A DNA stretch of 64,000 bases from Escherichia coli (GTDB lineage: Bacteria; Pseudomonadota; Gammaproteobacteria; Enterobacterales; Enterobacteriaceae): NCBI RefSeq assembly GCF_045037415.1, contig NZ_CP173438.1, one strand, 5' to 3'. The position numbers were made by a program. The number at the start of each line of letters is the position of its first letter. The stretch's first letter is position 1. Of this stretch, positions 35,301 to 38,300 are shown piece after piece.

Positions 35301-38300
35301 CCCAGTACAGCCCGCGTGAGGCGTAACAGGTGAATCCCAGTAATAAAATCAAGCCAATCCCCATCGCGACCGATTGCGGGTTAGAGTTCGTGACGAGCAG
35401 GGCTGTCAACGCCAGCAAACCGATGATGGAAAGGATTTGGACCACGCGGGTAGGGGATTTCACTTTACTGTAGGTGGTGATAATGCCGCCAAGTGGGCCG
35501 CACAGCGCGCGGAAGATTTTGTTGATCACAATCCCCATGTAGCTCGCCGCCACCAGCGACATGCCGTACATTTCGGTCAGATAGTTGGTGGAGTAACTCA
35601 GAATGGCGTAGATGGTGAAGACACCAAAAATCACCATGCTGCAATACCAGGTAGTGCTGATGCGCAAAACGGCCAGGATGTCGCTAAGCTGGAATGACTG
35701 TTTTTCTTCGTTATTGGCACTGCGTAGGTTGTTGTTATCGCTAACAAAAAACCAACACAAAATGCCCAGCAGAATGTAAACCACACTATAGATAATAATG
35801 ACCGTTTTCAGGCTGGCGCTGTCATCCGGTGCAAAGCGAGAAAAGACCCACATGGTAAACACCGCCAGCGACATTACACCGACGCCGCGCAGCCCTTCCA
35901 TCCAGCCCATAATTTTCCCTTGCTCGCTATGATCGCCCAGCAACGATGCGGCTTTAATCGACACCGACCACAGCATTAAAATCGTCGTTATCGCAAAGGC
36001 GACCTGAATACAGAGCATTACCCACAGCGGTGGATATGTTGCCATTAACAGACCCAGTAATCCGGTAATGATCATCGCGGAAGTAATCATTTTGCGATGT
36101 GAAAATTTATCGGCAATAACGCCGCTAGGGGCATAGAAAATAATGGCCGCAATACCAAAGGTACTCATTATTAAACCTATCTCGGTATTGCTGAATCCCA
36201 TAAATTTTGCCATGGGAATTTGATAAATATAACGTAAATAAGCCAGGTCGAAACTAACGCCGCCGCTAAAACTAATTATCGCGAGGGTTATCCAACGGCG
36301 ATATGAGTTGTGTTGCATATCGTATTCCCATTTGTAATAGACAAAAAAAAGAGAAAAGTAAGCCGCCCTTTCAGGTGGATTACTTTTCTCAGGTCTCTAG
36401 TAATTGCAATAAGAAATAACATGGAAAGCAGAGGTGTTGTGTGAGAGTAATCACGCTTCTGCTTTTTTAAATTATTTGACAATACGAACATCACACTGTG
36501 ATTACGATCACATTAGCAGTTATGTCCTTATGCTAAAAATTATCTCCAGTTACCAGAGATAATGAGAAAGGTAACTTCCCTCTCGCGGGGGAAGTTACCT
36601 TTCTTTTTTTTTGCCTTACGGAAATTGGAGCTAACTATGTCAATCGAATCTCTCAATGCGTTCTCAATGGATTTTTTCTCCCTGAAAGGTAAAACAGCAA
36701 TTGTTACCGGCGGGAATAGCGGTTTAGGCCAGGCATTTGCCATGGCGTTGGCCAAAGCTGGCGCAAATGTCTTTATTCCTAGTTTCGTCAAAGATAACGG
36801 CGAAACAAAGGAAATGATTGAAAAACAGGGCGTTGAAGTTGATTTTATGCAGGTGGATATCACCGCAGAAGGCGCGCCGCAGAAGATTATCGCTGCCTGC
36901 TGTGAGCGCTTCGGTACCGTCGATATTCTGGTCAATAATGCCGGTATTTGTAAGCTGAATAAGGTGCTGGACTTTGGTCGTGCCGACTGGGACCCGATGA
37001 TTGACGTGAACCTGACCGCCGCATTCGAGTTAAGCTACGAAGCGGCAAAAATTATGATCCCGCAGAAAAGCGGTAAAATCATTAATATCTGTTCATTGTT
37101 CTCTTACTTAGGTGGTCAATGGTCACCTGCTTATTCTGCCACTAAACATGCTCTTGCCGGATTCACCAAAGCCTATTGCGATGAATTAGGCCAATATAAT
37201 ATTCAGGTGAATGGTATTGCTCCTGGTTATTATGCAACCGATATTACGCTGGCGACCCGTAGTAATCCAGAAACTAACCAGCGTGTTCTTGATCATATTC
37301 CGGCAAACCGTTGGGGTGATACTCAGGATTTAATGGGGGCAGCCGTATTCCTCGCAAGTCCGGCATCGAATTATGTCAACGGACATTTATTAGTGGTTGA
37401 TGGCGGTTATTTAGTGCGCTAATTCATAACGGTGGTTTCTGTTTTCTCTTATTAATAACTATTCCATTTTTATTATCAGGAAGGAATTATTATGTCTTTA
37501 TCTCGCGTAGCGATTGTCGACCAGCTAAAGGAAATTGTTGGTGCAGATCGCGTTATTACCGATGAAACGGTATTAAAGAAAAACAGTATTGACCGTTTTC
37601 GTAAATTTCCGGATATTCATGGAATTTATACTTTGCCGATTCCGGCAGCGGTCGTAAAACTCGGTTCCACAGAACAAGTATCCCGTGTGCTGAATTTTAT
37701 GAATGCGCACAAAATTAACGGTGTGCCACGTACCGGTGCTTCCGCCACCGAAGGTGGACTGGAAACCGTTGTGGAAAACTCGGTGGTGCTCGACGGCTCC
37801 GCCATGAATCAAATCATTAATATTGATATTGAGAATATGCAGGCCACGGCGCAATGTGGCGTTCCGCTGGAGGTGCTGGAAAACGCATTGCGCGAAAAAG
37901 GTTACACCACGGGGCATTCTCCGCAGTCAAAGCCGCTGGCGCAGATGGGCGGCTTGGTGGCGACCCGCAGTATCGGGCAGTTCTCCACACTCTACGGCGC
38001 AATCGAAGATATGGTCGTTGGTCTGGAAGCGGTGCTGGCAGATGGCACCGTCACACGCATTAAAAAAGTGCCACGTCGCGCGGCTGGCCCGGACATTCGT
38101 CATATCATCATCGGCAACGAAGGTGCACTGTGCTATATCACTGAAGTCACAGTGAAAATCTTCAAATTTACGCCGGAAAACAATCTCTTCTACGGCTATA
38201 TCCTGGAAGATATGAAAACCGGCTTCAACATCCTGCGTGAAATCATGGTGGAAGGGTATCGTCCGTCGATTGCTCGTTTGTATGATGCTGAAGATGGCAC

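Follow-up and report, generated by a model that had tools for sequence, protein, structure and literature searches.

Twin CRP-site promoters with GlpP-type leaders, probably switched by YgcP, between the divergent ygcW and yqcE operons of Escherichia coli

How is a block of about ten uncharacterised genes (ygcE, yqcE, ygcWUSRQ and ygcNOP), found in 93% of complete Escherichia coli genomes, brought under control? The question is raised by the stretch analysed here, a 64,000-nucleotide segment of an E. coli chromosome (contig NZ_CP173438.1, assembly GCF_045037415.1) that we refer to as the window. The block contains two divergent operons, yqcE-ygcE and ygcWUSRQ, separated by a 318-bp spacer, and ygcP, with ygcO and ygcN beyond it on the minus strand (Table 1). 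We consider it probable that the spacer carries twin CRP promoters whose transcripts begin with GlpP-type leaders switched by YgcP, a member of the same protein family as the glycerol antiterminator GlpP; the switch would turn on an uncharacterised sugar/polyol pathway. CRP binding, premature Rho-independent termination and the existence of short RNAs have a basis in published experiments; sequence comparison reveals two modules of one architecture, an antiterminator helix that covaries, linkage of the leaders to ygcP and a likeness to the GlpP-responsive glpD leader.

A first-pass annotation of the window had described a perfect CRP site and a terminator upstream of ygcW. The CRP site is confirmed as the sole zero-mismatch TGTGA-N6-TCACA within the window, and binding of CRP to it has been published. 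The terminator is also present, with its run of nine T residues (36604-12), although its stem is 19 bp rather than the 14 bp first given: GAGAAAGGUAACUUCCCUC (36564-82) pairs throughout with GGGGGAAGUUACCUUUCUU (36587-36605), and the U tract ends 24 nt 5' of the ygcW start codon. In a terminator scan it outranked every other terminator-like site in the 14-kb cluster, and the fold of 36536-36614 reached -37.5 kcal/mol (z = -7.6), a stability attained by 0 of 200 shuffled sequences. Transcription of ygcW is predicted to start at about 36546, and the leader reads CAGUUACC-A-GAGA-UAAU-GAGA-AA-GGUAACU..., the individual GAGA repeats lying at 36556-59 and 36564-67. AGTTACC (Box A) is the exact complement of GGTAACT (Box A'). 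The 3' strand of the hairpin that they form, together with the second GAGA, is the 5' arm of the terminator, and hairpin and terminator are consequently mutually exclusive. The earlier proposal of exclusive structures built on AGTTACC is thus supported by folding in the two conformations, and also by the covariation described below: the minimum-energy fold of the nascent ygcW RNA is the Box A/Box A' hairpin (-6.7 kcal/mol), and the full leader is far more stable (-33.8 kcal/mol).

The upstream hairpin in which AGTTACC had originally been placed did not survive comparison. TTATCTC (36540-46) is complementary to GAGATAA (36556-62) in the window strain, but over 32 distinct relatives a mean of 3.6 of the seven pairs is kept, and the 5' arm precedes the transcription start. 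Box A lies at the extreme 5' end of the RNA, which makes such a hairpin irrelevant. A leader peptide or an extended ygcW reading frame was likewise rejected, since the sole leader ATG (36562) is not conserved; the AUG is missing in many relatives, which have for example ...CGAAGAGA or ...CCUGAGA. In the window this ATG shares the reading frame of ygcW and would extend the gene by 25 codons through the terminator hairpin, and the listing of open reading frames (ORFs) gives an ORF of 286 amino acids. A separate variation of the leader is seen in E. coli SCU-485 (NZ_CP053245.1 787237-787742), which carries a tandem duplication of 67 nt, from ATTATCTCC to CCTTTCTC; the first copy is without a U tract, and the transcript would carry two successive Box A/GAGA hairpins.

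Overlooked in the first pass were a second leader and a second CRP site serving yqcE-ygcE. A complete second module occupies 36343-36455 on the minus strand and mirrors the ygcW module, with a CRP-like site, an extended -10 element and an antiterminator/terminator leader of the sequence CAAUUACUAGAGACCUGAGAAAAGUAAUCCACC-UGAAAG-GGCGGCUUACUUUUCUC-U8. A covariance model built from the relatives, R1, scored 79.5 bits at 36547-36612 on the plus strand and 75.4 bits at 36406-36343 on the minus strand, and gave no other credible match in the window. Neither the terminator scan nor the model found leader-type terminators elsewhere in the cluster, for example upstream of ygcN. The absence of such a leader at ygcNOP indicates that the regulator is probably made independently of the switch. 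The nascent yqcE RNA also adopts the Box A/Box A' hairpin as its minimum-energy fold, at -1.4 kcal/mol, with -22.3 kcal/mol for the full leader. Comparison of these energies implies that neither hairpin can hold on its own and that each needs a stabilising factor. If transcription begins 7 nt after each -10 hexamer, the assumption behind starts 36546 and 36406, then both CRP sites are centred exactly at -41.5, the class II position. Both promoters thus appear to be of class II CRP-dependent design, the starts being deduced from the -10 elements and the 5' ends of published short RNAs, and activation by CRP being predicted. The spacer holds two back-to-back regulatory modules of identical design.

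Two inverted copies of about 65 nt flanking a core of about 140 bp might instead be the ends of a small mobile or repetitive element, of the miniature inverted-repeat transposable element (MITE) or repetitive extragenic palindrome (REP) kind. The locus is, however, single-copy and syntenic: the spacer is found at a median of one place per E. coli genome, always on the chromosome, and the window holds no further copies. Synteny extends across orders, the copies face outward to the genes that they precede, and their helices carry compensatory changes. We therefore rejected a mobile origin, whose probability is practically negligible.

Published data already contain the products that such leaders would leave. 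CRP site 1 was predicted in 2007 (PMC1794230) and is bound by CRP in vivo in enterotoxigenic E. coli (ETEC), according to chromatin immunoprecipitation sequencing (PMC4287617), and in vitro with a Kd of 1.7 nM (PMC12871828). The 'CRP-bound region center' in the Footprint-seq table (2900412) lies 7.5 nt from the motif centre (2900404.5) and was not used for positioning. Entries in Romero et al. 2014 (PMC4681348) place a pair of new short RNAs between ygcW and yqcE, each sharing the strand of the gene downstream of it: ecr2774, of 73 nt, and ecr2775, of 63 nt and verified by northern blot. Start-to-U-tract lengths predicted for the terminated leaders are 67 nt (ygcW) and 64 nt (yqcE). According to the same entries, the 5' ends of the two RNAs are 139 nt apart, compared with 140 nt between the predicted starts, and that of ecr2774 falls within a few nucleotides of the predicted ygcW start. 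The spacing was preferred as a measure because it is free of the unverified version offset (1975-1978 nt) that absolute U00096.2 coordinates need. The Term-seq tables of Adams et al. 2021 (PMC7815308) give 40,640 reads for a 3' end at 2900311 (-), which is 38 nt upstream of ygcW, and 1,557 for another at 2900556 (+), 36 nt upstream of yqcE; through the K-12 record these correspond to window positions 36599 and 36354. Both are scored there as Rho-independent (Rho scores below 1, 'No') with intrinsic-terminator scores of 15.8 (ygcW) and 11.4 (yqcE), and neither table entry has a regulatory element assigned. Judged by the coordinates, strands and lengths in these entries, ecr2774, ecr2775 and the Term-seq 3' ends are the same physical RNAs as the terminated leaders. 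Short RNAs and Rho-independent 3' ends at both leaders indicate that premature termination is the default state in ordinary laboratory conditions. The entries themselves present unannotated short RNAs and orphan 3' ends, and do not describe a switch, a twin design or a link to YgcP.

The same RNAs could be primarily CRP-controlled small RNAs (sRNAs) that act in trans, with the two operons depending on separate promoters or leaky read-through. They were first reported as sRNA candidates, and in the published entries they are abundant and one is northern-verified. CRP-activated E. coli sRNAs with Rho-independent terminators do exist, such as CyaR and McaS. Against this, the gap of 24-30 nt between terminator and start codon has no other promoter-like site, and the element always immediately precedes the same catabolic genes, including in Firmicutes, where gene order differs. 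The mutually exclusive helices covary, which would be unnecessary for an sRNA. A primarily trans-acting function is consequently very unlikely, although a trans-acting role on top of the cis role could still exist.

A scan with YgcP, using one genome per species, gave 64 loci. Among these, about 55 loci of Enterobacterales contain 99 copies of the leader (84 of them distinct), usually one before ygcW and one before yqcE, and twin leaders occupy the spacer nearly always, from Escherichia, Citrobacter, Klebsiella and Enterobacter to Serratia, Rahnella, Pantoea, Erwinia and Budvicia; genomes of this order with both copies number about 60. A CRP-like site at -41.5 +/- 2 accompanies each of the 99 copies and agrees with the consensus at 8-10 of 10 positions, a score reached by only 0.33% of random positions, and a TGn extended -10 stands at a fixed distance from the leader in every Enterobacterales copy inspected. 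In an alignment of 82 distinct sequences the GAG triplets and most of GAGAAA-G are invariant, and the six core pairs of the antiterminator are kept in 95-100%. Compensatory changes between Box A and Box A' turn G-C into A-U in 21 of the sequences and U-A into C-G in 20. The covariation score of this helix was reached by no column shuffle, and registers slid along the alignment fall to 15-54% paired. The expectation that the pairing would be conserved across enterobacteria with compensatory changes is thereby borne out. The terminator helix is 91% paired in the same alignment; its 5' arm is nearly invariant and its 3' arm drifts through wobble pairs and mismatches, a difference that suggests a constraint on the 5' arm beyond terminator pairing.

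This pattern bears on another explanation, that the leaders are constitutive attenuators or mRNA-stability elements without a dedicated factor, the outcome being decided by CRP, terminator efficiency or NusA, NusG and growth rate. The terminators are indeed very strong, no inducing condition has been reported for these operons, and binding of H-NS and of RpoD holoenzyme to the spacer has been reported. A constitutive terminator, however, needs neither a covarying antiterminator helix nor an invariant GAG loop, and both have been kept from Gammaproteobacteria to Clostridia. We give the factor-less explanation only slight credence.

At three loci (L034, L041 and L054) the twin leaders of one genome share identical or near-identical terminator hairpins including the loops, whereas the loops vary freely between species, which suggests gene conversion between the inverted copies. 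In Limnobaculum eriocheiris (L032 13887-13950) the ygcW-yqcE spacer is about 160 nt long and holds one palindromic terminator between A and T runs, without Box A or promoters. The inverted leaders may have recombined there, with loss of the control region.

Outside the Enterobacterales, loci in Firmicutes gave weak model matches that on reading proved to be the same element with compensated helices. A variant with AGUUGCU...AGCGACU lies upstream of a ygcU-ygcP-yqcE-ygcW-ygcE operon in Listeria. Two copies are found in Bacillus sp. DNRA2, in Clostridium sediminicola, in Sporomusa (AAUUACU...AGUAAUU) and, with CRP-like sites, in Vibrio hannami; Thalassobacillus has one upstream of a ygcW homologue, and the Faecalibacterium variant has GUUUC...GAAAC. 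All of these variants adjoin ygcP homologues, and leader and ygcP thus occur in one cluster across Enterobacterales, Vibrio, Bacilli, Clostridia and Negativicutes. An explicit pairing table for 23 lineages shows that the helix remains paired through changes in both strands at positions 2, 5 and 7. The three positions covary as G-C/A-U, A-U/G-C/U-A and U-A/C-G, and several of the changes are independent, among them that of Sporomusa (G-C/A-U), that of Listeria and Bacillus (A-U/G-C) and that of Faecalibacterium (A-U/U-A). A metagenome scan that began from the motif recovered nine true leaders, all adjoining homologues of ygcU, ygcW or yqcE, and ygcP was present in the six of six contigs long enough to reveal it. 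Most of the 85 metagenome loci with a match were chance occurrences in coding DNA or members of an unrelated repeat family in two samples. The latter, a repeat of about 100 nt starting GAGTGCAATAATTTACTGAGAATGAGAAAAGTAACAGAACATGATATAACAGTGCGACACAGTCAATAATATACGGCTCGGCAAAG, is present in dozens of contigs of Ga0049105 and Ga0209255 (loci L073-L152), matches the pattern by chance without a terminator and appears to be an unrelated dispersed repeat.

Why YgcP should be the factor is suggested by its family. The first-pass annotation had called the convergently placed ygcP GlpP-like, and the assignment is secure: residues 12-184 of YgcP cover positions 1-173 of the 173 of PF04309 (G3P_antiterm; E = 1.6e-62), and the match to the solved GlpP structure of Listeria monocytogenes, 3KTS, has E = 1.2e-27. 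PF04309 is the only domain, with no CAT or PRD domain. The closest known system is that of GlpP in Bacillus subtilis, with antitermination in the leaders of glpD, glpFK and glpTQ. There the glpD 5' untranslated region (5'UTR) renders foreign promoters glycerol-inducible, an effect credited by the authors to GlpP acting on the terminator in this region (PMC9604022). That 5'UTR reads AGUUAAUAAGAAC-GGUC-CU-GAGA-UGAG-GAGA-GACC-ACAGCACC...GUGGUCUCUUUUU (PMC9604022, Table S4). Both it and the ygcW leader begin with AGUUA, both have a short 5' helix enclosing two GAGA repeats whose starts are 8 nt apart, and in both the terminator's 5' arm starts with the second GAGA and the helix 3' strand. The B. 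subtilis leader folds likewise, its nascent RNA adopting the 5' hairpin until the 3' arm of the terminator emerges. The two systems also share PF04309 regulators, a terminator directly after the promoter, catabolite control at initiation and presumably an inducer at elongation, and an FGGY kinase and an FAD-dependent dehydrogenase in the pathway. This plan recurs in the leaders of glpD and glpF next to glpP in Priestia megaterium, Lysinibacillus and Paenibacillus (L066 7600-7700 and 10170-10265; L158; L159); these canonical glp leaders start AAGUUAAUA, with the one exception of Lysinibacillus glpF, which has AAGUUCAUA. The L. monocytogenes glpP locus (L067) is uninformative, with no adjacent glp genes and no credible match to the model. 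What the ygc cluster shows of the GlpP type is a PF04309 regulator, a promoter-proximal terminator, a GAGA-helix element, an exclusive and conserved pairing and linkage of the genes, the last with one exception (L045).

The differences from the glycerol system are also clear. YgcP forms its own subfamily, and its host is Gram-negative, with CRP instead of CcpA and two divergent leaders in one spacer. The helix is GUUAC/GUAAC in the YgcP type and GGUC/GACC in the GlpP type; in the former AGUUAC itself serves as a strand of the helix, and the second GAGA is followed by an AAA spacer. The ygc pathway is not glycerol catabolism, since it consists of a short-chain dehydrogenase/reductase (SDR), a GlcD-like FAD oxidase, electron-transfer flavoprotein (ETF) components and major facilitator superfamily (MFS) transporters. 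All but one of the canonical GlpP leaders inspected start with (A)AGUUAAUA a few nucleotides 5' of the GAGA hairpin, and the YgcP-type leaders start AGUUAC; we found no description of this shared 5' element. Listeria grandensis and L. booriae (L056 and L063; P0129 and P0130) encode a canonical GlpP and a YgcP-like paralogue, and with both in one Listeria cell the two must tell their leader types apart.

Conservation of this kind could also be expected of RNA that binds a ligand, and the 5' hairpin of about 30 nt might be a small riboswitch sensing a pathway metabolite directly, with YgcP an enzyme or an unrelated neighbour. The leader sequence is highly conserved even in the unpaired loop, as in an aptamer, and as far as we know GlpP-family proteins do not have classical RNA-binding folds. 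A scan of 35900-37000 on both strands against Rfam 15 at a permissive threshold gave no family at its gathering score, the best being chance-level sRNA and microRNA models, which leaves room for a new class. However, a helix of 6-7 bp and a loop of 14-16 nt are very small for an aptamer, and a PF04309 gene consistently accompanies the leader in different phyla. GlpP reportedly binds the glpD leader RNA (Glatz et al. 1998). The B. subtilis glpD 5'UTR, moreover, has the same design, and its regulation is reported to be GlpP-dependent (PMC9604022). A direct metabolite sensor is accordingly highly improbable.

Other protein-dependent systems resemble the ygc leaders in part. In the BglG (SacY/LicT)-RAT system, too, a catabolic operon has a strong terminator in its leader, and a protein stabilises the weak antiterminator hairpin overlapping it; BglG, however, is a CAT-PRD protein under phosphorylation by the phosphotransferase system (PTS), and the RAT sequence is unrelated to the ygc leaders. 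A BglG/SacY-RAT assignment was rejected on the domain content of YgcP, PF04309 only, and on the leader being without a match in Rfam. HutP and TRAP are similar in that what is recognised in the leader appears to be a set of short, purine-rich repeats of the GAG type, spaced at fixed distances. They differ in having other folds and binding 6-11 triplets, and TRAP promotes termination; the ygc leaders have two GAGA repeats in a hairpin loop.

We present the following model for YgcP-dependent switching. CRP-cAMP would activate both divergent class II promoters, which have extended -10 elements, each yielding a leader of some 65 nt with (A/G)UUACY almost at its very start. With no inducer the leader would fold as the strong intrinsic terminator and transcription would stop 24-30 nt before the start codon, leaving the short RNAs. 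As the alternative, the first 30 nt or so would form the weak Box A/Box A' hairpin, whose loop of 14-16 nt carries the two GAGA repeats; YgcP would bind this GAGA-repeat hairpin at the 5' end of the nascent RNA, hold it shut and block the terminator. YgcP is expected to do this while carrying a phosphorylated pathway intermediate, for which the product of the FGGY kinase YgcE is the simplest candidate. Read-through would then express a transporter and kinase (yqcE-ygcE) along with the oxidoreductase, ETF and transporter genes (ygcWUSRQ). The choice of the YgcE product as inducer is by analogy. In the glycerol system a facilitator, the FGGY kinase GlpK, glycerol-3-phosphate and the FAD dehydrogenase GlpD lead to quinone, and the ygc counterparts would be the MFS transporters, the FGGY kinase YgcE, the FAD oxidase YgcU, the ETF YgcRQ and the ETF-quinone oxidoreductase-like YgcNO.

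Several points weigh against this model. Binding of YgcP to leader RNA and the identity of its ligand are inferences. The likeness to the GlpP target concerns design and short motifs compared by eye rather than statistically scored homology, and model R1, which is of the YgcP type, scores canonical GlpP leaders weakly (18.4 bits). The yqcE antiterminator is very weak alone (-1.4 kcal/mol). The Term-seq 3' ends, as tabulated, fall within the terminator 3' arms and stop 4-5 nt short of the U tracts, which 3' trimming after termination might explain, though this is unproven. All the genome loci were chosen for carrying ygcP, and the test of co-occurrence from the side of the motif comprises the nine metagenome contigs only. 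Serratia microhaemolytica (L045 7431-8000) has a ygcP homologue of 70% identity, flanked by a metH-like gene and a flavodoxin-like gene, with neither the ygc cluster nor the motif within 7-10 kb. Two gut-metagenome contigs (L099 and L100) have the motif and no ygcP visible in their 3.9-8.3 kb, a length too short to decide its presence. The original suggestion of CRP control at initiation and a YgcP-operated switch at elongation is nevertheless supported; all the available evidence agrees with it and with YgcP as the likely antiterminator, whose binding and ligand are the part that is still inferential.

A bolder extension of the model can also be formulated. Each terminated leader RNA carries a full YgcP-binding hairpin, and these RNAs might titrate YgcP as decoys or act in trans, which would couple both operons with a sharp threshold of induction; more broadly, the AGUUA and two-GAGA hairpin would be a widespread RNA family, absent from Rfam and read by all GlpP/YgcP proteins from Firmicutes to Proteobacteria. 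We regard this as an unlikely, speculative proposal.

The coordinates of the spacer features and of the genes around them are collected in Table 1. When the window is set against Citrobacter or Klebsiella (L007-L017), YgcP is 96-97% identical, YgcW about 96%, YgcU 92-94%, and YqcE and YgcE 88-92%, whereas YgcQ, YgcR, YgcO and YgcN are 57-77% identical; the ETF genes therefore evolve much faster than the core. On the other side of ygcE, a sucrose-utilisation block adjoins it at about 27500-33371 of the window, as read from a strain with an identical spacer (L001), with genes for a LacI-family regulator, a sucrose-6-phosphate hydrolase, a PTS IIBC component, a porin and a kinase.

Table 1 Features of the ygcW-yqcE spacer and the surrounding ygc genes, in window coordinates.
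Feature	Position	Strand	Remarks
CRP site 1 (TGTGATTACGATCACA)	36497..36512		centre -41.5 from predicted ygcW start
Extended -10 of ygcW promoter (TGcTAAAAA)	36531..36539	plus	read from sequence; TGnTAnnnn kept in relatives
Box A (AGUUACC), 5' strand of antiterminator helix	36548..36554	plus	covariation and nascent-RNA fold
Two GAGA repeats, starts 8 nt apart (GAGAUAAUGAGA)	36556..36567	plus	antiterminator loop; proposed protein-recognition element
Box A' (GGUAACU), 3' strand of antiterminator and part of terminator 5' arm	36570..36576	plus	covariation
Intrinsic terminator of ygcW leader	36564..36612	plus	19-bp stem, UCGC loop, U9
Second leader	36406-36343	minus	upstream of yqcE; covariance-model score 75.4 bits
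CRP site 2 (TGTGAGAGTAATCACG)	36440..36455		9/10 consensus positions; centre -41.5 from predicted yqcE start, ~36406
Extended -10 of yqcE promoter (TGtTATTTC)	36413..36421	minus	
Box A of yqcE leader (AAUUACU)	36405-36399	minus	
GAGA repeats of yqcE leader	36397-94 and 36390-87	minus	
Box A' of yqcE leader (AGUAAU)	36384-79	minus	
Terminator of yqcE leader	36390-36343	minus	U8
ygcE (FGGY kinase)	33536-35014	minus	3' of second leader
yqcE (MFS transporter)	35041-36318	minus	3' of second leader
yqcE and ygcE together	33536..36318	minus	genes served by second leader
ygcW (SDR)	36637-37422	plus	ATG at 36637
ygcW-ygcU-ygcS-ygcR-ygcQ (SDR, FAD oxidase, MFS transporter, ETF beta, ETF alpha)	36637..41991	plus	
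ygcP (PF04309, proposed antiterminator)	42139..42714	minus	convergent with ygcQ

The CRP site, the short RNAs and the 3' ends were already known. What appears to be new is the switch, together with its duplication, phylogenetic spread, relation to GlpP targets and link to YgcP, and the literature searched contained no report that connects ygcP with these leaders, or of YgcP binding or genetic dependence on it. To our knowledge, GlpP-type antitermination has been demonstrated only for the B. subtilis glycerol regulon, and BglG provides the only well-known case of protein-dependent antitermination in E. coli catabolic operons. From the comparison, a small 5' hairpin with two GAGA repeats suggests itself as the rule of recognition for the whole GlpP family, a rule which we did not find defined in the searched literature or in Rfam. 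Two published "novel sRNAs" and two orphan Term-seq 3' ends would be reassigned to a cis-regulatory switch, and regulatory logic would be supplied for the uncharacterised block ygcE, yqcE, ygcWUSRQ and ygcNOP. On this design the predicted inducer is a phosphorylated intermediate that YgcE makes, and a leader-reporter fusion could consequently be used to screen for the substrate of the pathway. If the model is true, E. coli gains a second class of protein-dependent catabolic antitermination beside BglG.

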